DNA of 32,000 nt from Pseudoalteromonas sp. MSK9-3 (GTDB lineage Bacteria; Pseudomonadota; Gammaproteobacteria; Enterobacterales; Alteromonadaceae), in the NCBI RefSeq assembly GCF_003590335.1, contig NZ_MIET01000046.1:264905-296904 (forward strand). The letters are read 5' to 3'. Below the pieces are notes generated by a model that worked only from the letters and a program-made list of their open reading frames with translations, did no database searches and was not told where the DNA came from. The position numbers and the translations under genes are program-made. Shown here piece by piece: positions 445 to 23,047 of this stretch; within the stretch, counting starts at the first letter, position 1; every line of letters starts with the position of its first letter.

Positions 445-472
445 ATTTAACATAACGTAAATTATAGGAGGT
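445..472 (-). other. dif-like Xer recombination site (site A), 11-6-11 architecture
   Basis: The minus strand reads ACCTCCTATAA-TTTACG-TTATGTTAAAT. The right arm is 11/11 identical to the XerD-binding arm of E. coli/Vibrio dif. The left arm ends in ATAA, palindromic to TTAT. The site lies 82 bp upstream of the recombinase start. Confidence 0.55.
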
Positions 473-553: not shown

Positions 554-1765
554 ATGCTTTCCCCCTTAGTTGATACACTTAAGCAACTTCGTTACCAAAT
601 TGCCCACATTGAAGATGGCACTTTGACCAACGAATACCCTGAGCTTGAATCATTTTTATCTCATACTGTACGTTCAGTAACTAATGCACGGGATGATATC
701 GAGTTTTTGTATCAGTTTTTATATGTGTATGGGAGAAAATCAGAGGCGACGTTTAATCGTTTTAGAAATGAACTAGAGCGGTTTTATTTATGGGCTTGGG
801 AATGGCGCGCACTATCAGTATTTGAACTCAAGCGAGAAGACATCGAAGCATATGTAGAGTTTGTCGTAGAACCTGACAATCGATGGGTCTCTGACTCCGT
901 CCAATGGCGTTTTAAAGATCATGAAGGTTTACGTATGGTCAATAAGCTGTGGCGCCCATTTGCACATAAAGAAAATGGTGTCAGTCAGCAAACTTTTTCA
1001 GCTATGTTTACAGCTCTAAATGTATTTTATAAATTCGCTATTCTTGAAGAAAAAACATTTACTAACTTTATACCTGTGGTTAAAAAAAATAGCCCTTATT
1101 TAATCGTACAATCTCAAATTAAATTGCCAGATACATTAAGTAATTTACAGTGGGAATATGTGTTTGGTGTTACACGAGATAAATGTGAACAAGATCCAAG
1201 TTTGGAGCGTAATCTATTTACTTTAGCGTGTTTAAAAGGACTGTATTTACGTATATCAGAGTTATCGGAACGACCACAATGGTCGCCGGTTATGTCGCAC
1301 TTTTGGCAAGATCCAGATGGCTTTTGGTATTTAAGGATCATGGGAAAAGGGAATAAATTACGAGATGTCACACTGAGTGAAGATTTCATTTTATATTTAC
1401 GGCGTTATCGGCAATATCGCGCCCTACCCGCATTGCCACGTGTTGATGAGCCCTACCCTATAATTCACAAATTACGTGGTCAAGGGGGTATGAATGTTCG
1501 TCAGATCAGACGTATTGTTCAGCAAAGCTTCGATTTAGCTGTTGACTCTTTAGCAGTCGACGGTTTTTCTGATGAGTCAGAGCAATTAAAAGCTGCAACG
1601 GCACACTGGCTCAGACATACAGGAGCGACCCATGACGCACAACATCGACCGTTAAAGCATTTATCTGAAGATCTAGGGCATGCTAAAATTGCAACGACAG
1701 ACCAAATTTATATTCAAACTAATATTAAAGAACGTGCGAAATCTGGTTCAAAAAGAAAGTTATAA
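554..1765 (+). CDS. Tyrosine site-specific recombinase (Xer-like / phage-integrase family), 403 aa
   Basis: C-terminal catalytic signature is present: LRISEL (Arg I), HWLRHTGATH (H-x-x-R) and LGHAKIATTDQIY (catalytic Tyr). The N-terminal region resembles a SAM-like core-binding domain (ATFNRFRNELERFYLWA). Confidence 0.85.
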   Translation: MLSPLVDTLKQLRYQIAHIEDGTLTNEYPELESFLSHTVRSVTNARDDIEFLYQFLYVYGRKSEATFNRFRNELERFYLWAWEWRALSVFELKREDIEAYVEFVVEPDNRWVSDSVQWRFKDHEGLRMVNKLWRPFAHKENGVSQQTFSAMFTALNVFYKFAILEEKTFTNFIPVVKKNSPYLIVQSQIKLPDTLSNLQWEYVFGVTRDKCEQDPSLERNLFTLACLKGLYLRISELSERPQWSPVMSHFWQDPDGFWYLRIMGKGNKLRDVTLSEDFILYLRRYRQYRALPALPRVDEPYPIIHKLRGQGGMNVRQIRRIVQQSFDLAVDSLAVDGFSDESEQLKAATAHWLRHTGATHDAQHRPLKHLSEDLGHAKIATTDQIYIQTNIKERAKSGSKRKL

Positions 1766-2255: not shown

Positions 2256-2283
2256 TTATTTATACTTTTTTGTTATGTTAAAT
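2256..2283 (+). other. dif-type half site (site C): exact XerD arm with non-canonical left arm
   Basis: TTATTTATACT-TTTTTG-TTATGTTAAAT. GTTATGTTAAAT (2272-2283) is the perfect 12-bp inverted repeat of ATTTAACATAAC (445-456). Confidence 0.4.
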
Positions 2284-9228: not shown

Positions 9229-10584
9229 TTAAACTTTGCTACGTGCGTCTTTAAGCAAATCAGCTACTAAAAATCCGAGCTCTAATACTTGGTCAGCATT
9301 AAGACGTGGATCACATTGCGTACGATAACGTTGTGCTAGGTCTTCATCAGATAAGCCATAAGCACCACCAACACATTCGGTTACATGCTGACCTGTCATC
9401 TCCAAGTGTACACCACCCGGGTAAGACCCTTCCGCTTTATGAACAGCGAAGAATTGACTTATTTCACGTAGTATATTATTAAAGCTGCGTGTTTTATAGC
9501 CTGTACTCGCTTTTTCAGTATTACCATGCATTGGATCTGAGGTCCAAACAACCTTGCGCCCTTCGTCTTGTACTCTGCGAACAAGGGCTGGTAATTTTTC
9601 TGGTAGTACGTCTGCTCCCATTCTGGTGATCAGTGTTAATCGTCCAGGGATATTGTCTGGGTTAAGTGCATCAATTAACGCGATTAACTCGTCAGGTGTC
9701 ATACCCGGTCCGACTTTTACACCTATTGGGTTTTTAATGCCGCGGAAAAACTCTATGTGGGCATGGTCAAGTTGTCTTGTGCGTTCTCCAATCCAAACAA
9801 AGTGGGCTGAGCAATCATACCAGTCACCAGTAAGATGATCCCTGCGAGTAAGTGCTTGCTCATAGCCTAGTAAAAGTGCTTCATGAGATGTATAGAGCGA
9901 CGTTTCTTTTAGACTTGGAGCTACGCTTGAGTCAATTCCACACACTTCCATAAACTCGAGTGCGTCTTGAATCTTATCAGCCATTTGCTGATACTTTTCT
10001 TTGAGAGGATTCGCAGCAACAAAGCTCATATTCCAACGGTTTACTTGGTGCAGATCCGCCAGGCCACCTTGTGCAAATGCTCTTAACAAGTTTAAGGTGG
10101 CTGCACTGTGATGGTAAGCTGTCATTAACCGGTTAGGGTCTGGCACTCGCGATTCTTCAGTAAACTCAAAGTTATTAATGATGTCGCCACGGTAAGACGG
10201 TAAAGAAACGCCATCGATTGTTTCAAAATTCGAAGAACGGGGTTTAGCGTATTGCCCTGCCATTCTGCCAATTTTTACAACGGGACATTTTCCACCATAT
10301 GTTAAAACGACAGCCATTTGTAGAAGTGTTTTGAATGTATCGCGAATATTTGCAGCATTAAAATCAGAGAATGACTCTGCGCAATCTCCGCCTTGTAACA
10401 AGAACGCTTTACCTTCACAGACATCCGCTAGATTTTTATAAAGGCTACGTGTTTCCTCAGCAAAAACTAAAGGAGGCGCTTTGTTTAGTTGCGCTTCGAT
10501 GTCTACTAATGCTGCTTTATCAGGGTATTCTGGTTGTTGGACAATTGGATGTTCTCTCCAACTATCTGGGTTCCAAGGTTTCAT
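9229..10584 (-). CDS. Class II (plant/actinobacterial-type) 3-deoxy-7-phosphoheptulonate (DAHP) synthase, 451 aa
   Basis: The ~450 aa length, N-terminus [19 protein letters not shown] and [13 protein letters not shown] are typical of class II DAHP synthases. A GAGGA RBS is present. Confidence 0.88.
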
Positions 10585-10678: not shown

Positions 10679-10692
10679 GAACACATCATACT
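10679..10692 (+). other. Putative replication terminator (Ter-like) site 1
   Basis: Exact GAACACATCATACT. The reverse complement AGTATGATGTGTTC resembles E. coli Ter AGTATGTTGTAACT. Confidence 0.6.
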
Positions 10693-11005
10693 AAATTTAG
10701 CGCATTAATGTATCATCTGAACATCTTAATTTATTTAATCTAATCCTTTTAATCAGACCAAAACATATTTAGCTATTGATATGATGAGAGTTAAGTACAC
10801 TCATTTGCGAAATAGATGATTAGCAGTAACTTGAATTGAAGGTTTGGCTGCTTAATGGTTGTTTTTAAAACTGCTAATAATTTTGGACGTGTAACCATTG
10901 AGGAAAAATAATCCAAATGTATGCTAAATGTTTATAAATGAACGACCCTAGAACTGGACCGCTTTAGTTCGAAACATAGACTCTCTTTTTATATTGTGGC
11001 TCCAA

Positions 11006-11194
11006 TCATAAAACTGTCTCTTGTTTACCGAAGTAAACTTCATCTGGTGTAAGTTCATTGGAGCCTTGATTGGCATGCCAGTTATTATGCAGTCTTTTTA
11101 TCAATAAGTTATGAACCGTTACAATATTATTGGTTTTGCCATTGATTAATGTCAAAACGATTATTTTGAATATGTTTTTTAACACAAGGAACAC
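11006..11194 (-). pseudogene. 3' remnant of an integrase-core (rve) transposase/integrase
   Basis: The ORF tail LIKRLHNNWHANQGSNELTPDEVYFGK resembles the conserved end of rve domains (..YN..RPH..L...TP.EVY). There is no upstream catalytic domain. Confidence 0.45.
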
Positions 11195-11203
11195 ATCATA
11201 CTT
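11190..11203 (+). other. Putative Ter-like site 2
   Basis: Exact GAACACATCATACT, in the same orientation. Confidence 0.6.
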
Positions 11204-11325
11204 TATTCGAATAAATATACACTCTCAGCACCGCTATTTAAAAAACATCAATAACCAGTAATAAGCCTTTACGAAACTCAAGTATCGTATGGTGTTGCTT
11301 ACTAAATGATTAACTACTTTTATTT

Positions 11326-11727
11326 GGTGTGTTCAAACGATTAAATACCTCAAACTATGCCTTTAAATGTAAAAAATTTGGAGTTGGTCATAGTACAACC
11401 ATCCTGTAGCTCAACGCAGAATCATCAATATTCGGCTAATCTCAATGCCATCTCAAAATGGCAAAAAACCGAAAGCATGGTGGCCATGGTCCGTTCAAGT
11501 CACTATTCTAATTTAGCAATTGAAACCTGTTTAACCTTAAGACTGTATTCCATTTTCCACAAACACTCTTGGAAGGGTTTTGGAATTCTTTACCCACTAT
11601 GGTGAATATCATATTGCAATCAACCGGTTATTATTGTGAATACAAAAGCAGTAAATATAATGAATGGGCTAGGTATGACAAAATACCAGCAACATAGTTA
11701 ACACTGAAATATTGATTGAAAGTTACC
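11326..11727 (+). mobile_element. Internally deleted IS5-family (IS903-like) element remnant
   Basis: The N-terminal fragment ..HYSNLAIETCLTLRLYSIF..GF resembles IS903-group RYSDLAITTVLVIKRVF.L.LR..QGF. A C-terminal fragment in another frame, NIMNGLGMTKYQQHS*, resembles LN.M...GMP.S. Imperfect terminal inverted repeats start with GGT at both ends. Confidence 0.5.
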
Positions 11728-12139
11728 TATCTGATCAGCAGTGCCTAAGTTAGGTTAGAATTTGAAGTTGTTAGTCTAAGAAGTTGGTTGCGGAAAATAT
11801 ACCTAGTCTATGTGATTATTGGTCTCATAATAATGGACTTAAATTGTCATAAAAAGGATATGAGTATGGAGCAATTAATTTTCATTTTGTTAGCGATCGG
11901 CTTGTCTAAATTACACAGCAATACTATCTCGACTGTTAGATTTAATACAATGTAATAGATCAAACTTTTACTTTCTAATAAGTGAGTTTATATCAATACA
12001 ATTATCGATGTTGTTTTCGGTAAAGTTATACTTTACCGCCCTCTCCCGGCTATAAGTATAAATAGAGTTAAGTTCACTCTCCATTGATGACTATTATCAC
12101 AATAGCAAAAAAGAGATTGTTCTGGTATCATCAGTGAAA

Positions 12140-12153
12140 GAACACATCATACT
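12140..12153 (+). other. Putative Ter-like site 3
   Basis: Exact GAACACATCATACT, in the same orientation. It lies 3 nt from dif-type site B. Confidence 0.6.
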
Positions 12154-12156
12154 ATT

Positions 12157-12184
12157 TCGTTACTTATTTTCAATTATGTTAAAT
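12157..12184 (+). other. dif-type site B in the terminus region: exact XerD arm, divergent left arm
   Basis: TCGTTACTTAT-TTTCAA-TTATGTTAAAT. The right arm matches canonical dif 11/11; the left arm matches GGTGCGCATAA poorly. Confidence 0.4.
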
Positions 12185-13351
12185 TATACAACTTACACAA
12201 AATTCAACTGTCCTACCAAGATTAATATCTTTGAAATTTTTGGTTCTTTTCATAACTCACTTTGTTAAGTTTATTAAAGCTTTTCAAAAATTTGATGAAT
12301 TTTCGTATAAAAATGCATTTCAAAAAAAGAAAATTATCGAAAGCACCATAGTCATGAAGCGAGTACTTCAAAGAGTTCAATTACAATATAGTGACAGTAT
12401 TATCCAGCCACCCTGGAAAAACTTAACTCCAATAAAGGCCACCAATCTTACCTTATTGTGATAGTCGCTTTTGTAAAATTACTATACAATTTCAGATTAA
12501 CAGCTTAAAAATAAACCATATCAACATTCAAAGAGAGTAATTATTAAAACTGACGAGCTATTTATTAAAAATTGCTAACGAACCTGCATTCGCATAATTT
12601 TCATGATATGAAAAATTACGAATAACTACTCAATGCTCCGCTAACTAGCTACCCCTTCAGCAAACGTTAAAAACGTATCAGTGTCGTCACAAGAGATAAG
12701 GTATTTTATATTCCTATTTTCAGTTAATGACTGAATAAAAATATAGATAAGTATTTTTCTTAAAGTTTGTCATTGAGGCCATTTACCAACGACAATCCAA
12801 AACTGAGGAAGTAGTAACCGTGATACAAAGCAGAAAATACTATCATTAAGTTAACCTTTCAATTATGAAAGACCGTATCTTTTAAACACAAGTGAAGGAA
12901 GTAATCCGCTTTCATAGTAAAAACTTAGCTCATTCTATATTTAACACGAAAAGGTGAGAAAGCTGAGGTTTGTAACTTAAAATAAGTTTTTATAACCCAA
13001 AAAGCGTCAATCAACAAAGGTGATATTCCACACTGCTAATTGTAAAGTGGTTTATGTCCTGGTGTCGCTACAACCTAGTCAAATTTAGGTAGTGCCTTTT
13101 TTCATATCGCTCGTTAACACTCAAGAACTATAATAGTAAAAGAGATAACTTATCTCAATACCTACCTGAGCTAAAAGAACATTCATCAATATGTTTAATT
13201 ACTCTCTGCTATTTCCTTGTACTTCTAACATGTAGCTATCGGTTCATTGACCAAGGTACATATTTAAAAATAAGCTTTCAATAAAAATCAATGCTGTCTT
13301 AGTAGAATAAATTCGACCTAAGATAACAATAAATGATAAAATACAGAATAA

Positions 13352-13365
13352 GAACACATCATACT
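13352..13365 (+). other. Putative Ter-like site 4
   Basis: Exact GAACACATCATACT, in the same orientation. Confidence 0.6.
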
Positions 13366-13463
13366 AAACGTTAATTAGTTTTTATATATCGATGTAAACC
13401 TCAGCCAGTTGTCAGAAACAAAATTTAGACTCAAGAGTAACAAACTTGATATAATAAGGAAGA

Positions 13464-13477
13464 GAACACATCATAAG
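13464..13477 (+). other. Putative Ter-like site 5 (variant)
   Basis: GAACACATCATAAG: the last two bases differ, including the C equivalent to E. coli C6. Confidence 0.45.
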
Positions 13478-13527
13478 TAAGCTCGTAGATAAAGAAACAT
13501 CTCGATACGTTTAATGCTCACAAATGT

Positions 13528-13556
13528 AGAACACATCATACTTTAAATGTTATAAT
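13528..13556 (+). promoter_or_regulatory. Putative tus promoter
   Basis: Perfect TATAAT at 13551-13556, with AGAACA 17 bp upstream. Ter-like site 6 fills the spacer. Confidence 0.35.
13529..13542 (+). other. Putative Ter-like site 6, inside the tus promoter
   Basis: Exact GAACACATCATACT. It lies between a weak -35 and the TATAAT at 13551-13556, 50 nt upstream of the tus ATG. Confidence 0.6.
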
Positions 13557-13591
13557 ACACCTATGAACATTACAACTATTTATAATTTAAT

Positions 13592-14473
13592 ATGTCATCA
13601 AGCACCAATCAGTTTAAGCTTAGAGCACATTTTGACCATTTAATGGAGCTTACTTCATTATTTTGTGTCGAATTAGAAAAATCGGATATTATCTCTGCTG
13701 ATTATTATCAACTCCCGAACGTCACAAAAGAATCAGAAGAAAAAGCACCTGAACAAATACAAGTTCAAAAAATAACAGGCAATAAAGCTATTGATAAGAT
13801 TGTTTTTGCTTATAAAGATTTATTTTTAGATGAAAAAGTCAGTGGAAAAGTGCTGCAACGCCACCCAGGTATTATACGTATTAACGACGAAACCCATACT
13901 CTTCAAGCAAGGCTGAAAGAAGTAAATAAAGCAAAAGAAGATTTTAAAAATGCAATTTTACAAATCGAAAATAACGACGCTCGTTTTGAAGCAGTACATA
14001 GTGCAATCCCTAACTTAATGACTTTAGCTGCTTATAGAAAAATACACAGCGAGTTAGCAGAACCATATTCTGTAAGGTTTACATGGATGACAAAACACGC
14101 TACCCGTACTTTAACTAAAGATGCCGCATTAGAAATGCTCAATAAATCTTCAAATTACAATAACCCACGAATGATTGATCAAGAATCTTGGTTATCTCTC
14201 GTACAAAAAGAAAAAGCGCGTGTAGCCAATTTAGCTGAAAAAAGTAAATTAAGAATTAGAAGGCCAACACGAGTATCGCCTGAAATAAATGTTCGATTTA
14301 CTGCAGAAAATAGATATCATGTTAGCGCAGCGTTACCATTTATTCTTTTTAATCCGAGTAAAGATACAAAAATCGGTAGCCTAAAACACTATGAAAAAGT
14401 TGAAAATCATCCAAGAAAGAAAGAATATAACTTTCTCGTAGACAGGATATATCTAGAAAAAGTAAGCGAATAG
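13592..14473 (+). CDS. tus: DNA replication terminus site-binding protein (Tus) homologue, 293 aa
   Basis: Collinear blocks match the remembered E. coli Tus. RFEAVHSAIPNLMTLAAYR aligns with RFEWVHRHLPGLITLNAYR. VRFTWMTKHATRTL aligns with LRFGWANKHIIKNL. SKLRIRRPTRVSPEINVRF aligns with AKLKIKRPVKVQPIARVW. The size is similar (293 vs ~309 aa). Confidence 0.85.
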   Translation: MSSSTNQFKLRAHFDHLMELTSLFCVELEKSDIISADYYQLPNVTKESEEKAPEQIQVQKITGNKAIDKIVFAYKDLFLDEKVSGKVLQRHPGIIRINDETHTLQARLKEVNKAKEDFKNAILQIENNDARFEAVHSAIPNLMTLAAYRKIHSELAEPYSVRFTWMTKHATRTLTKDAALEMLNKSSNYNNPRMIDQESWLSLVQKEKARVANLAEKSKLRIRRPTRVSPEINVRFTAENRYHVSAALPFILFNPSKDTKIGSLKHYEKVENHPRKKEYNFLVDRIYLEKVSE

Positions 14474-14474
14474 C

Positions 14475-15689
14475 TTACTTTTTCACTATTTGTTCTAAGA
14501 TTTCTTCATCAATCACTTCAACATCTTCAACAATACGCTTTCCACCTTGGATTTCAATACGCTTATTATGTTTATTTAAAGTCAGTATTTCATCGCAAAA
14601 CTGTGATGATGGATGCATTTCATAAACGTAATCGATGATCTTGCCTGTATTGTCATCCTTTACATTGCTTATGCTGTAATCAGAAATCGCGCCTTTTTCA
14701 ATCAAATCTTTCATTGTTGTTGTCATATCGCGACGTAAAGCCTTCAATTTATTCTCAACAATTTCATCGGTGGAATAAATTGACCCATACTTTTCCATGA
14801 TTGACAAAAGACGAAAATGATACGTTTTTCCTGGTGCTGCATAGCGCCATAAATGATATAAACGTAACATCATCCAACGTGACAAACCGCGCTTTAATTC
14901 TTGTGCACTATTAAAATAATATCCTTTATACTCTAAATTATCGATCATATTATGAACAAACGCATTCAAACACGCGACACATTTAATGTTGCCACCTTGC
15001 CCCTTTTTACCGCTAAAGTGCAGTGAAGATAAAAAGTTCATATTTGATTCATAGAATGAGTCATCAATATCGGTATTTTTTGTATCCGTTGCTGAGTATT
15101 TGAACGAAAGTTTAGAACCTTGTAACGCTTCTAAAGACTCTTTAATTTGTGGGTAAGGCATTGACTGACCCACGGCTTTGAGTTCTTGAGCTAATTCGTT
15201 CATTGAAAATATTACAGCATATTGAATACCGGACTTAAAATTTATTTTTACAATTTTTCCTTTTGACGCGAGACGAATAAGCGCACGTTCTACTTTTTCT
15301 TCTCTATCAGATGGCCAAACCAGATACTCTAGGTCTTCTCCATCTTTCTTACTACTTACAACAGCCGGGGTTATTTTTATCTCACCTTCATACAAAATAC
15401 CGTCAACTTTTTCTGAGATTCGCCGTGTGATGATCGTTTTTTTAGGCGCTTCTTCTAAAGGAAGTTTTTTATGACCCGAACGGACAAATCGACCCCAAAG
15501 ATCATAGTGATTGAATGTATTAGAATAAGCTCGCAACCCATACGCAGCATTTTCTAATGATATACGAACATCTTTATTATCCGTAAACAGCGCCAAACTT
15601 TCGTTATCAATAGCGCTTTCCACACCATGTATCTGACCCCTTAGTGAATCGGGCAGATTATCAACAGAGATGTTCACCTTTCGGCTCAT
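14475..15689 (-). CDS. Plasmid-type replication initiator (Rep, winged-helix/TrfA-RepA-like), about 404 aa
   Basis: The gene is divergent from parA across an iteron/GATC/DnaA-box region. The likely start is the ATG at 15689, with GGAAG 7 nt upstream; the ORF track extends to a TTG at 15740. The family assignment comes from context and general Rep-like character, not from a recognised motif. Confidence 0.65.
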   Translation of the reverse strand: MSRKVNISVDNLPDSLRGQIHGVESAIDNESLALFTDNKDVRISLENAAYGLRAYSNTFNHYDLWGRFVRSGHKKLPLEEAPKKTIITRRISEKVDGILYEGEIKITPAVVSSKKDGEDLEYLVWPSDREEKVERALIRLASKGKIVKINFKSGIQYAVIFSMNELAQELKAVGQSMPYPQIKESLEALQGSKLSFKYSATDTKNTDIDDSFYESNMNFLSSLHFSGKKGQGGNIKCVACLNAFVHNMIDNLEYKGYYFNSAQELKRGLSRWMMLRLYHLWRYAAPGKTYHFRLLSIMEKYGSIYSTDEIVENKLKALRRDMTTTMKDLIEKGAISDYSISNVKDDNTGKIIDYVYEMHPSSQFCDEILTLNKHNKRIEIQGGKRIVEDVEVIDEEILEQIVKK

Positions 15690-15740
15690 TATTTTACTTC
15701 CAAAATTTATGACAGCTAATAACAACATATTCATGAACAA

Positions 15741-16324
15741 AAGTTAATGATTTAAGTTAGTATAAAACTGATCTATCCAAGTTTTTTTTTTGAGATCGCT
15801 TTTTTACTAACTAGACAAAAATAAAGATCATCTTTTTACTAACTAAGGTTGGTTATTAAGCTTTTTGTGCACAAAACACTGTTTAATTCTGGTTGAAATA
15901 CGGTGTTATTGTATCGATTGTGGATAACTGCACACAATGTTGGTATAGATCAGATCTGTACTTAGGATAGATCCGATCTTTATTTACTTGATCATAAGAA
16001 TCAAAATCGAAATGTTTATAACCATTTGAATTTACTTAGTAAAAATGTGATCTAACGGGTCGGAAATGTGTATAAGTGTGTGGGTAACCTGTTCACTCCT
16101 TTACTTTAAATATAGGAGTTAGTAAAAAGAGGATCCATGAGTACATAAAGATCAGATCTTTACTTCGTACAAATTAGATCTGCTATTTTTAACATTATTC
16201 ATATATATCATATGGTTATGTTCTTTTTAGCAAACCCTATCCTTTAATACCTATATACTTAACCATATTTAATCTTCTTATTTATACTTAGTTAAGTAAT
16301 TTTATATGATGTCTTATATTTTTT
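15741..16324. other. Plasmid-type replication origin (ori of the secondary replicon)
   Basis: Five 18-bp iterons GTTAGTAAAAAnnnGATC lie at 15756-15773 (+), 15794-15811 (-), 15826-15843 (-), 16035-16052 (+) and 16118-16135 (+). There are 13 GATC sites between 15770 and 16180. Three AGATCnGATCTnTACTT-type repeats lie at 15947-15963, 15969-15989 and 16149-16165. An AT-rich tract spans 16186-16324. Confidence 0.8.
15919..15927 (-). promoter_or_regulatory. Perfect DnaA box
   Basis: TGTGGATAA is the reverse complement of the consensus TTATCCACA. It sits centrally between the two iteron groups. Confidence 0.7.
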
Positions 16325-16384
16325 GTGTTTACTACTAAAGTAATGGACATTATAATGATAGGTATCAAGTCAAGGATATCGCGT

Positions 16385-17620
16385 ATGTCAATTAATAACA
16401 AAGCACTTTCAACATATCGTTTATTAAAAGCAACAGCAGAAGTTGCTGAACAATCACTAGAAGGTCGTATACAGCATTATAGGGCCCATTTAAAGACAGA
16501 TGAGAAAGAGCTAAGAACCTATACACAAAAAGCCGCAGCTGATTTGCTTGGATGTAATAATAGAACATTAAAACGACGTCATGACCAAGGTGATTTTGAT
16601 CACCTTAGTATCCAAAAAGGTGCAAACGGGCATTACGCATACACATTGTCAAATATCTTCGCAATGGCCGAAATCTTAGGTGTAGAGGCTGATCAAAGAA
16701 AAACAGGCGATAAACTCCAAGTGATCGTTATCAATTCACTAAAAGGCGGCTGTGGCAAAACCACGTCTTTGGTGAATATTGCAGCTGCTTTAGCCACCAC
16801 AAATATTAAGCGATACAGAATTGGTATTATTGATCTAGACCCACAGGGATCATCATCTAGCTTTTTTCCGGCTAACGATCCTGAGCCGATAACAGTGGGA
16901 GATCTAATGAGAGACTGTATCGAGTTAGATGAAAACGAAACATGGGCTCAGGTTGTATCAAATGCATTTCAAGAAACGCATATCCCAAATATACGCGTTT
17001 TACCATCAGGGATGGACGATTTTTATTTCGAACATGAAACAGCCACTGAACTTAAAGAAAGCTCAGGATATGAACAGACCCGACATTATCACAAACTATT
17101 AGAAAAAGTTATTGCACCTGTTGAGTCACAATTTGATCTAATTCTAATAGATACAGCGCCCTCATTGAATTTTATGTTTTACAATGCGCTCATGGCCTCT
17201 ACAGCAATGCTCATACCAGTCCATCCTGAGGCTGTTGATTTTGACGCTAATAACAAATATCTAAAAAGACTTGGTGAGATTTATCATACAGTCGCCGCAC
17301 TTGGCCATGATGGTTGGGATTTCATGCAATTTTTAGTGACAAACTATGTTAAAGGTAACCATTCTCAAAGAGACATAGTGAAAGATGTAAGAAGTGCTTT
17401 TGGACGACAAGTTATGAGTTACCCAATAAATCATAGCTCTGCAATCACAGCCAGTTCATCATCGTTCAACACTATTTTTGATCAAAAAACATCTGATAGT
17501 TTGGCAAGCAGAGAGTCACTTGTTAAATCACAAGAAAATATTAAAGATGTTGTAGACGAACTAGAAATGTTGATCAGGTCAAATTGGTTATCCACACAAT
17601 CTTCATTAGCACAATCTTAA
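16385..17620 (+). CDS. parA: Type Ia partition ATPase ParA (long N-terminal HTH form), about 411 aa
   Basis: Deviant Walker A KGGCGKTT, plus DLDPQGS and LILIDTAPS. The ATG at 16385 has AAGGA 8 nt upstream; the ORF is open from 16325. Confidence 0.9.
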   Translation: MSINNKALSTYRLLKATAEVAEQSLEGRIQHYRAHLKTDEKELRTYTQKAAADLLGCNNRTLKRRHDQGDFDHLSIQKGANGHYAYTLSNIFAMAEILGVEADQRKTGDKLQVIVINSLKGGCGKTTSLVNIAAALATTNIKRYRIGIIDLDPQGSSSSFFPANDPEPITVGDLMRDCIELDENETWAQVVSNAFQETHIPNIRVLPSGMDDFYFEHETATELKESSGYEQTRHYHKLLEKVIAPVESQFDLILIDTAPSLNFMFYNALMASTAMLIPVHPEAVDFDANNKYLKRLGEIYHTVAALGHDGWDFMQFLVTNYVKGNHSQRDIVKDVRSAFGRQVMSYPINHSSAITASSSSFNTIFDQKTSDSLASRESLVKSQENIKDVVDELEMLIRSNWLSTQSSLAQS

Positions 17621-17636: not shown

Positions 17637-18599
17637 ATGGCTAAAAAACGTAAGAACGATACCCGGTTAGATCCATTTGCAACTGCAGTTGAAGGGAGCA
17701 GTTTAGATGATCTTTTAGATCAAGCGAAAATAGGTGATGTGATCACCATGCCAGCACCTAGTGATCCATTACGTACAATCACATTAACATGCCAAGTAAT
17801 AAAATCAGCCGATATAGAAACGACTACTCAAGTTTATGGTCAAAATAGACGGGAACAAAGTTTATTGAACGAAAAGTCTGTTGCAGATATCTTACCAGCC
17901 ATAAAACACGATAAGAGAAACCTCCACCCGGCTCTGTGCTGGCAAAAAGGTGCTCAGCAATGGGTGTTATCAGGTTCAAGGAGAAGAAAGGCTTGTATGC
18001 TCGCTCAGGCTGACTATGTTGTATTGTCGTCCGCTGATTTTAATGATGATGATGCAAAAGCTCTTGCCATCTCTTCAGATCAATATATTGCACCAAGCTT
18101 ATGGGAACTAGGAAAAGCATATAGCACGACTAAACACAACTTAGTTAATCAAGGTTTGAAAGGCTCTTACCGTGAAATTGCCGCTATTGAAGGCATTTCT
18201 CACACCGCGGTTGCTGATGCTATAAAAGCTTTCGAGGTTATTCCTAAAAGTGTTCTTAGCTTATATCCAACGCCAAATCACTTAGGCAGAGAAGCAGCTA
18301 AAAAGCTCATTAACGCGATTAAAGATAATAAGTCTGCATTTGAACAACAAGTTTGTCATTTTAGTCAACAATCATTCATTAGCGATGAACAAAGCGATGA
18401 AAAACGGGCAATGCTTACAACTCAGTTTTTAACAACATTTGGTGATAAAGCTAATCGCACAGAAGCTTTGTTAGAAAACAAGTTCATTAAATTACAACGT
18501 AATATAAAAAGTGGTGATGTAACAATTAAAATCGACAATAAAGTGTTAACTGATAAGCGCCTTGAACAGCTACAAAAATTGTTAGCTGGCTATAATTAA
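17637..18599 (+). CDS. parB: Plasmid-type partition protein ParB, 320 aa
   Basis: The gene lies immediately downstream of parA. It has a GSRRR arginine patch and an HTH (YREIAAIEGISHTAVADAIKA). Confidence 0.85.
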   Translation: MAKKRKNDTRLDPFATAVEGSSLDDLLDQAKIGDVITMPAPSDPLRTITLTCQVIKSADIETTTQVYGQNRREQSLLNEKSVADILPAIKHDKRNLHPALCWQKGAQQWVLSGSRRRKACMLAQADYVVLSSADFNDDDAKALAISSDQYIAPSLWELGKAYSTTKHNLVNQGLKGSYREIAAIEGISHTAVADAIKAFEVIPKSVLSLYPTPNHLGREAAKKLINAIKDNKSAFEQQVCHFSQQSFISDEQSDEKRAMLTTQFLTTFGDKANRTEALLENKFIKLQRNIKSGDVTIKIDNKVLTDKRLEQLQKLLAGYN

Positions 18600-22357: not shown

Positions 22358-23047
22358 ATGCAGCACATCCTTATAGTTGAAGATGACTTTGATATAGCAG
22401 AGCAAGTCATGTTGTTTTTTAAAGCATCTGGATTTAAAACGTCACATATTGCTGACGGTGCTGAGGTTGTGCCTTGGGTTGAAGAAAATAGCCCAGATGC
22501 GATTTTGATGGACATTATGCTGCCGAACCAAGATGGTGTGGAATGCATGAAGCAGATCCGAGCTTTTTCTATGGTGCCAATTATTATGATGACGGCCAAA
22601 GTGGCTGAATCAGATAGGTTAAAAGGGCTTGAGTTTGGTGCTGACGATTATGTGTGTAAACCCTTTAGCGCCGCTGAATTAGTAATGCGTATGAAAGCCA
22701 TTTTGCGTCGCTGTGCTCCTTTAGCAGATGCTGAGTCAGAAAAGTTGGTGAATGTCGATGAGGCGCAGTTGACGGTAACATTAAAAGGGCAATTATTAGC
22801 ATTAACGAAGGTGGAGTTTGATGTGTTTGCATTACTGTATAACGCGCCAAGCCGAGTCTTTTCGCGTCAGCAGATCCTAGATTATATTCAACCAGACAAC
22901 TTTGACATTTCAGATCGAGTCATTGATAGTCACATCAAAAATATTCGTAAAAAAATAAAATCTTTGAATATTTCTCCAAAATTGGTTGGGTCGGTTTACG
23001 GTGCCGGCTATCGCTATGATGAGCAGCAAATCAATAACAGTAATTAA
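22358..23047 (+). CDS. OmpR/PhoB-family response regulator, 229 aa
   Basis: Receiver motifs LIVEDD, DIMLP and TAK are present, with a C-terminal winged-helix ending GAGYRY. Confidence 0.9.
   Translation: MQHILIVEDDFDIAEQVMLFFKASGFKTSHIADGAEVVPWVEENSPDAILMDIMLPNQDGVECMKQIRAFSMVPIIMMTAKVAESDRLKGLEFGADDYVCKPFSAAELVMRMKAILRRCAPLADAESEKLVNVDEAQLTVTLKGQLLALTKVEFDVFALLYNAPSRVFSRQQILDYIQPDNFDISDRVIDSHIKNIRKKIKSLNISPKLVGSVYGAGYRYDEQQINNSN

Follow-up and report, generated by a model that had tools for sequence, protein, structure and literature searches.

A Ter-like motif arrayed upstream of tus beside the origin of a Pseudoalteromonas chromid: a candidate one-way replication fork barrier

The stretch analysed here (the window) comprises 32,000 nucleotides of Pseudoalteromonas sp. 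MSK9-3 and is a piece of a Pseudoalteromonas secondary chromosome, or chromid. It encodes a homologue of the replication terminus protein Tus, and the gene-poor DNA upstream of that gene holds six co-oriented copies of a short motif resembling the Ter sites of Escherichia coli; these candidate Ter sites, and the fork barrier that they may form beside the chromid origin, are the subject of this report. The gene order is a dif-like site, a tyrosine recombinase, a FAD/Fe-S protein, ppsA, ppsR, DAHP-synthase, the gene-poor stretch, tus, repA, ori2, parA and parB. This is the layout of the conserved tus-repA-ori2-parA2B2 cluster, and the order repA-ori2-parA agrees with Table S3b of Xie 2021 (PMC7858055). 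The features are as follows.

445-472, minus strand: candidate dif2, the 28-mer ACCTCCTATAATTTACGTTATGTTAAAT, found with a looser arm-based score, with a perfect XerD arm
554-1765, plus strand: tyrosine-recombinase gene (Pfam Phage_integrase, E=1e-9)
9229-10584, minus strand: DAHP-synthase gene, bordering the gene-poor stretch
10679-10692, plus strand: Ter-like site 1, the outermost, an exact match
11189-11202, plus strand: Ter-like site 2, an exact match whose flanks are not conserved
12140-12153, plus strand: Ter-like site 3, an exact match
13352-13365, plus strand: Ter-like site 4, an exact match
13464-13477, plus strand: variant Ter-like site, two mismatches
13529-13542, plus strand: Ter-like site 5/6, the innermost, an exact match
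13592-14473, plus strand: tus (PF05472, match to PDB Tus, fold match)
14456-14484, no strand: terminator-like hairpin with a 12-bp stem, between the convergent tus and repA
14475-15740, minus strand: repA, the chromid initiator, an open reading frame (ORF) of 421 amino acids
15741-16324, no strand: ori2, with iterons, a DnaA box at 15921-15929 and GATC clusters
16325-17620, plus strand: parA2 (profile match)
17637-18599, plus strand: parB2 (profile match)

Five exact copies of the 14-mer GAACACATCATACT begin at 10679, 11189, 12140, 13352 and 13529, all on the plus strand, and a sixth copy at 13464, GAACACATCATAAG, departs from it at two positions on the same strand. An earlier note on this DNA, written from the letters alone, had listed these five copies and the variant, all in one orientation; the motif scan agrees in count, strand and position, save that the second copy starts at 11189 and not at 11190. 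Scanned at up to two mismatches, the window yields seven matches against 0.27 expected (26-fold), and none of 100 shuffles reached seven. When the six sites were aligned with 30 bp of flank, conservation was confined to A-R-GAACACATCATAC-W-W and ended about two bases past the 14-mer on each side, as expected of the stand-alone sites of about 18 bp that the note had described; in its 16-bp form the candidate reads AAGAACACATCATACTTA. The reverse complement, AGTATGATGTGTTC, agrees with the verified E. coli TerB sequence, AGTATGTTGTAAC, over positions 5-10 and 12-14, G6 among them, and the two are identical at 9 of 14 positions. The partial identity with the Ter core noticed earlier thus holds, the differences lying at positions 11 and 15-18, and in Ter convention the element reads WW-GTATGATGTGTTC-YT. 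Mobile-element ends, integron sites and non-coding RNA were considered as identities for the sites and ruled out by the non-conserved flanks, the absence of inverted pairs and the lack of an Rfam match; RepA iterons were ruled out because their sequence is different.

The seventh match, AAACACATCAAACT (22815-22828, minus strand, two mismatches), lies inside a response-regulator gene 6.5 kb to the right of the origin. Both of its mismatches are kept in P. citrea and P. aurantia (L001 19226; L003 10244). If functional this copy would face the main fork, and it is more likely a coding coincidence or a pseudo-Ter.

The protein encoded at 13592-14473 matches Pfam PF05472 with E=7.2e-79 (residues 9-288 on positions 1-295 of the 296-position profile) and the PDB entries for E. 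coli Tus, 1ECR/2I06, with E=2e-27, so that the profile search proposed in the earlier note returned the homology that the note had recognised by eye. The protein scores 247 bits against the NCBIfam equivalog NF002810 and 133 bits against TIGR02648, both short of the enterobacterial cut-offs (323 and 178), and it therefore belongs to a divergent Tus subfamily. An AlphaFold2 model of moderate confidence (predicted local distance difference test, pLDDT, 71.5; predicted template-modelling score, pTM, 0.65) matched only Tus chains in the PDB (1ECR, 4XR0-2; E about 1e-17, template-modelling score 0.59-0.61), the next match having E>1. The window Tus shares 92% identity with the P. aurantia S3788 protein and 80% with the P. 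citrea one; in clustering at 50%, Pseudoalteromonas Tus form three to four clusters with at most 34% identity to all other Tus. In E. coli Tus the lock pocket is reportedly formed by I79, F140, H144 and G149, and E49, K89 and R198 are said to be key DNA contacts. The 14 Pseudoalteromonas Tus compared all share the equivalents of F140, H144, E49, K89 (K/R), R198 and R232, and those of R93, K175 and H176 are also conserved in the window Tus. Two replacements, A173M and Q250H, are invariant in the genus; they affect residues that we take to lie in the DNA-contacting region and would be consistent with an altered Ter core. Tus-like proteins are also encoded by nearly 4,000 plasmids in PLSDB, mostly from Enterobacterales and also from Vibrio, Aeromonas and Photobacterium, and a 149-kb plasmid of P. 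spongiae (NZ_CP023400.1) carries a distant Tus homologue with 28% identity and two matching places.

The plasmid-type Rep/iteron origin that the earlier note had placed next door occupies the repA-parA interval (15.7-16.4 kb), where iteron-like repeats TTAGTAAAAAnnnGATC occur in both orientations together with a perfect DnaA box, TGTGGATAA, at 15921. It is 0.6-0.7 kb long, AT-rich and contains many GATC sites, and the Ter-like sites lie 2.2-5.1 kb from it. The repA product gave no match in a Pfam profile search, and homologues are called at 404 amino acids, which would place the start of the window gene near 15689. The function of repA homologues has been demonstrated in P. tunicata and P. spongiae, and repA plus ori2 was shown experimentally to be the minimal replicon (Xie 2021, PMC7858055). 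The hairpin at 14456-14484 is likely a bidirectional transcription terminator that overlaps the stop codons of tus and repA.

The spacer between the DAHP-synthase gene and tus (2.9-3.0 kb), in which no convincing gene had been seen, holds only ORFs of up to 82 amino acids and a weak transposase remnant, and an Rfam scan of it found no family. Its first 108 bp align at 84-94% with loci L127, L128 and L129, and site 1, about 95 bp from the DAHP-synthase start, keeps its position in P. citrea, P. aurantia 208 and Pseudoalteromonas sp. T1lg23B. Between 10700 and 12500 the spacer contains decayed insertion sequence (IS) fragments, among them an ORF at 11357-11605 with a weak match to DDE_Tnp_1_5; the piece homologous to this remnant is inverted in P. 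citrea (L127 7000-7900). In other species, many draft assemblies break 0.1-1 kb upstream of tus (L126, L140, L144, L146, L150, L155, L158, L160), and insertions seem to collect in the spacer on the terminus side.

Conservation of the motif was followed in the tus loci of 80 further Pseudoalteromonas species, 81 with the window, each taken with 10 kb of flanking sequence to either side; the set contains no P. tunicata, P. piratica or named P. spongiae. The motif is present upstream of tus in 80 of the 80. At up to one mismatch, the first 4 kb upstream of tus (282 kb in total) hold 202 co-oriented and 43 inverted copies, the sequence further upstream (393 kb) holds six, and the sequence downstream of tus, beyond the origin (609 kb), holds none. 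A blind count of 10-mers returned GAACACATCATAC as the sole word family common to all 81 upstream regions. The genus consensus is A-R-GAACACATCATAC-W-W-W-W, or WWWW-G-TATGATGTGTTC on the opposite strand, with a conserved G-C(6) pair beside the W-rich flank. Searches seeded with one half-site recovered the other half at 92-99%, and position 10 at 78%, and the element therefore behaves as one unit; with unbiased half-site seeds the C6-equivalent, C13, is 93-94% conserved. The spacers of the window and P. citrea cannot be aligned save for the first 108 bp, inverted IS remnants and the 18-bp sites, a pattern that clearly points to selection acting on these sites. In the THAF3 chromid the motif is unchanged although Tus is only 46% identical.

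The earlier note had asked whether the motif might be scattered over the genome. For the chromid this is answered by HL-AS2, a close relative of TAC125 whose complete chromid of 680,547 bp was assembled from 14 fetched pieces: the 13-mer at up to one mismatch occurs at exactly three sites, all within 850 bp upstream of tus. In other species some copies lie 7-10 kb from tus, near dif-like sites. In denitrificans-like loci the distal site falls inside the coding sequence of a FecCD-type permease (L211 9287-9299; L212 9346-9358), where the codons read RYDVFF; at the homologous place the permease of the P. spongiae lineage reads F-D-F-S-V-F-Y. Presumptively, this permease coding sequence doubles as a fork-barrier site.

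A natural comparison is offered by P. spongiae, whose clade alone has been shown to replicate its chromid bidirectionally (Xie 2021, PMC7858055). All six primers of P. spongiae JCM 12884 (Xie Fig. S3d) have matches, with 0-2 edits and equal amplicon sizes, in the Logan contigs L209 and L210, which share with P. spongiae the 857-bp repA-parA gap of its ori2 and a Tus of 287 amino acids; primers for P. tunicata, a unidirectional close relative, matched none of the fetched loci. In L209/L210 the motif was not found in the 4.2 kb upstream of tus, nor in the 10 kb downstream. Their Tus has lost the otherwise invariant NPR(198)MIDQ loop, reading KPMITQDK where other species read NPRMIDQ, while the rest of the protein is kept, as are repA, parAB and ori2. 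Two further lineages, L208 and L213, behave as L209/L210 do. Loss of the motif in the bidirectional lineage is what a barrier model predicts and would support that model indirectly.

These patterns bear on the idea that the motif is bound by some other chromid factor, such as RepA, ParB or a regulator, or marks the end of a mobile element, and is linked to tus only through the proximity of the origin. The region does adjoin ori2 and does contain IS remnants. However, the motif has no likeness to the iterons of ori2, lacks the palindromic form of parS, never occurs as inverted pairs flanking a transposase and lacks conserved flanks; its position follows tus and not repA or the origin; it agrees with TerB at 9 of 14 positions, G6 included, and in relatives takes the place of TerB, as described below; and in the P. 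spongiae lineage it disappeared together with the R198 loop of Tus, while repA, parAB and ori2 stayed. We regard such a factor as scarcely credible.

In E. coli the helicase that reaches Tus-Ter from its non-permissive side encircles the strand carrying G6, and the excluded C6 flips into Tus (PMC4499146). In the window the C6-equivalent cytosine is on the plus strand, at the origin-proximal end of each site; in the 13464 variant this base, C13, is replaced by A, and that copy is therefore probably weak or unable to lock. The polarity of E. coli is favoured because the opposite polarity would, in loci with paired sites, leave a segment of about 100 bp between them closed to both forks. By analogy with Tus-Ter of E. 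coli, we consider it probable that A-R-GAACACATCATAC-W-W (13-16 bp) is the Ter of the Pseudoalteromonas chromid Tus and that the array enforces unidirectional replication beside the origin; Tus binding, its polarity, fork arrest and the existence of a fork on the short arm are what we infer from sequence. According to this model, Tus bound at the sites would show its non-permissive, locking face to forks that leave ori2 (at about 16 kb) leftwards through repA and tus, and its permissive face to a fork travelling rightwards round the replicon. The leftward fork would be held 2-5 kb from the origin, at the innermost site (2.2 kb) first, and four or five further sites, reaching out to 5.1 kb, would serve as back-ups. 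The other fork would copy the rest of the chromid, pass dif2 and fuse with the held fork in the Ter array, and the net outcome would be replication in one direction with a terminus beside the origin.

The place of dif2 in this scheme can be estimated. The E. coli dif sequence was not found in the window at up to three mismatches. The candidate at 445-472 is on the tus side of ori2, at a distance of 15.3 kb, and immediately precedes the tyrosine-recombinase gene (554-1765). It is similar to ATAACCTATAAGTTATGTTATGTTAAAT, the one site in the HL-AS2 chromid that scores best as dif-like; that site is 15.0 kb away from ori2, and Xie 2021 (PMC7858055) gives the same dif2-ori2 distance for TAC125. On this sequence likeness and position it is probably dif2. 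In Table S3b of the same study dif2 is on the repA/tus side of ori2, 4-27 kb away from it. An orphan 11-mer resembling a XerD arm, TTATGTTAAAT, occurs at 12174-12184 (plus strand), 21 nt after site 3, and again in the window at 2256-2283 (plus strand). Its copies lack a recognisable XerC arm and are enriched around tus in pigmented clades, with one to four copies in about 45 of the 81 loci against a chance level of about 0.01-0.03; examples are L138 (-3732), L156 (-2525/-1476/+927) and L135-L164 (about +894 to +925, minus strand, just past the tus stop codon). Some of these copies stand at the dif2 distances of Xie and would therefore, in the P. piscicida and P. luteoviolacea groups, apparently put dif2 within the Ter array, whereas in the HL-AS2/TAC125-type chromid, and in the window if 445-472 is dif2, it lies outside the innermost sites.

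Replication of Pseudoalteromonas chromids in one direction, mentioned in the earlier note, is on record in the unidirectional marker-frequency profiles of Xie 2021 (PMC7858055). In keeping with them, the cumulative GC skew of the HL-AS2 chromid, a check that the note had proposed, is not symmetric: it declines monotonically, 30 of its 35 bins having one sign, and the G-rich leading strand is the tus-sense strand. The local skew is -0.07 over the array and -0.08 over the tus-repA interval, the sign expected for leftward replication, and beyond the origin it has the opposite sign.

Several observations weigh against the barrier model or narrow its base. The skew is also negative in the 5 kb past the outermost site in 33 of 33 loci, a possible sign that forks leaving ori2 often continue towards dif2; large conserved minus-strand genes dominate that segment, and local GC skew, confounded by this conserved gene orientation, does not locate the point of fork fusion in the window. 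Xie 2021 (PMC7858055) allows for either one or two forks at ori2. Enterobacterial Ter differs at five positions (11, 15-18), and the polarity adopted here is carried over by analogy. Within the cytosine pocket, the G149 equivalent is N, S or G and that of I79 is L, M, V, I or K among the 14 Pseudoalteromonas Tus. The uniqueness of the motif applies to the chromid, and Tus may have further targets on chromosome 1. The assignment of L209/L210 to the P. spongiae lineage draws on primer matches and lengths. Finally, the TerB-like inverted site considered next is absent from the window and from the P. citrea/aurantia clade, and the argument from layout is one about relatives.

In 46 of the 81 loci one inverted copy abuts the tus start codon, for example as GTATGATGTGTTCTT-ATG. 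In E. coli the tus-sense strand reads AATAAGTATGTTGTAACTAAAGT, 10 nt and ATG (AGTATGTTGTAACTAAAGT-N10-ATG) in 5422 of 5426 genomes, and the vicinal inverted copy of Pseudoalteromonas thus has the position and orientation of TerB, the site by which Tus regulates its own gene (Toft et al. 2021, PMC8707476). In relatives with this copy the returning fork would be blocked as well, giving a trap that forks may enter and not leave. Co-oriented copies only are found in the P. citrea/aurantia clade, the P. rubra group and the P. phenolica group, the window having five copies and one variant and P. citrea six. Because only co-oriented copies are present, the window array would be a one-way barrier and not a trap. 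In the P. piscicida/maricaloris/peptidolytica group (L135, L136, L138, L142) an exact inverted copy lies at +964 to +989 from the tus start, inside the 3' end of repA and not at the tus start codon, and the trap there would enclose the whole tus gene.

The P. citrea/aurantia clade has, in place of the TerB-like site, a co-oriented site at -63 beside a TATAAT. In the window this innermost site starts at -63 and lies 50 nt upstream of the tus ATG, with TATAAT (13551-13556) 9 nt downstream of it, and the arrangement is also present in P. aurantia and P. citrea; a promoter scan did not call a promoter at 13551-13556. Taking the TATAAT as the promoter, the innermost site is probably also the tus operator through which Tus represses its own gene, and it may replace TerB in this role in the window and its relatives. 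Could all the sites be Tus operators and nothing else, serving tus and neighbours such as DAHP-synthase without significant fork arrest? The nearness of the innermost site to TATAAT, the overlap of the vicinal site with the tus start region in relatives, the distance of about 95 bp between site 1 and the DAHP-synthase start, and the operator action of TerB in E. coli (PMC8707476) would all fit. Against this, many copies stand in DNA that cannot be aligned, 0.5-3.9 kb away from tus, others inside the permease coding sequence or 7-10 kb off near dif-like sites, their orientation is strictly kept, which operators would not need, and F140, H144 and E49, residues of the lock, are all retained. A purely regulatory role is therefore highly improbable in our view.

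A more serious contender assigns the array the part of a safety catch, as on plasmid R1: ori2 would fire a single rightward fork, the array would be used rarely, to stop stray leftward forks, and the sites, though still Tus-Ter barriers, would not be the cause of unidirectionality. An inverted site would then stop a returning fork from crossing the origin and so prevent over-replication, rolling-circle replication and multimers, and 46 of 81 species have such a site, turned towards the returning fork, which fits that role. The statement of Xie 2021 (PMC7858055) that one or two forks are both possible agrees with it, as does the finding that P. spongiae repA and ori2 alone support replication, and R1-type plasmids are described as using origin-proximal Ter in this manner (Krabbe 1997, as cited in Goodall 2023, PMC10331603). 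However, several clades, including that of the window, keep two to six co-oriented and no inverted copies, which cover leftward forks only, and the loss of sites coincides with the lone bidirectional lineage, whose repA-ori2 is homologous. This coincidence suggests an origin able to fire in both directions when no barrier is present. We hold the safety catch to be unlikely and retain the enforcing barrier as the preferred model. A wider evolutionary version of the latter is more tentative, and we would put it somewhat below an even chance: repA-ori2 would be capable of bidirectional firing, a co-oriented array would switch it to unidirectional replication, and the clade of P. spongiae, P. piratica and SAO4-4, the single known case, would have turned bidirectional through loss of the sites and remodelling of the Arg198 loop.

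The concept of a barrier is already published. Galli et al. 2019 (PMC6549158) noted that tus always adjoins the chromid origin and proposed an origin-proximal Tus barrier; Xie 2021 (PMC7858055) considered that the counter-clockwise fork is possibly blocked at ter2 and found nothing in a search with the E. coli ter consensus, in line with the earlier note, which knew of no defined Ter motif there; and Fig. 3B of Goodall 2023 (PMC10331603) draws the model with a question-marked ter and likens it to plasmid R1. Later papers on Pseudoalteromonas chromids define no ter, and the 14-mer was not found in either orientation among 8 million searchable papers. The Ter motif and its architecture therefore appear to be new: the published hypothesis for the second chromosome (Galli, Xie, Goodall) places tus beside ori2 and presumes a ter at which the counter-clockwise fork is stopped, but has no Ter sequence, and the motif, its orientation, copy number, conservation and absence from the P. 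spongiae lineage are supplied here.

Set beside the type I traps of E. coli and other Enterobacterales (PMC8707476), the Pseudoalteromonas system shares the protein family and fold, an asymmetric site of about 16 bp with G6-T-A-T-G10 and T12-G-T14 in common, a vicinal site in most relatives, co-oriented back-ups and likely autoregulation. It differs in its core, GATGTGTTC against the enterobacterial GTTGTAACT (positions 11, 15-18), in a Tus that is about 25-28% identical and carries A173M and Q250H, in its location on a plasmid-derived chromid beside the origin and not opposite it, and, in the clade of the window, in having all sites one way and no trap. TerR1 and TerR2 of the IncFII plasmids R1 and R100, as described by Krabbe et al. 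1997 and summarised by Goodall 2023 (PMC10331603), are likewise placed a few kb away from a plasmid-type origin, in a replicon copied unidirectionally, and stop a wrong-way or returning fork; R1 relies on the chromosomal Tus of its host and enterobacterial Ter, whereas the Pseudoalteromonas chromid is an essential replicon of 0.6-1.4 Mb that bears its own tus, adjoining repA, with its own Ter consensus in up to six copies. RTP-Ter of Bacillus subtilis is also a polar fork barrier set up by a site-specific DNA-binding protein, but of unrelated fold and acting as dimers on bipartite sites, so that the likeness is one of analogy only.

Pseudoalteromonas chromids are an experimental model for the transition from plasmid to chromosome, most of them replicating unidirectionally and a few bidirectionally. 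A 16-bp Ter candidate makes both the identity of ter and the question of one or two forks testable in the genetically tractable P. haloplanktis/translucida TAC125. It would also provide a second, strongly diverged Tus-Ter specificity pair (core GATGTGTTC) that informs the co-evolution of the lock with base recognition and could be used as an orthogonal polar fork barrier in synthetic biology, and it supports the descent of chromosomal fork traps from origin-proximal barriers of plasmids. If the wider evolutionary version of the model is true, Ter specificity has remained invariant for about 400 million years, the age of the genus according to the dating of Xie 2021 (PMC7858055), while Tus diverged to about 45% identity. 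A fork barrier would then programme the direction in which the chromid is replicated, and a chromosome-like mode of replication would have evolved by dismantling it.

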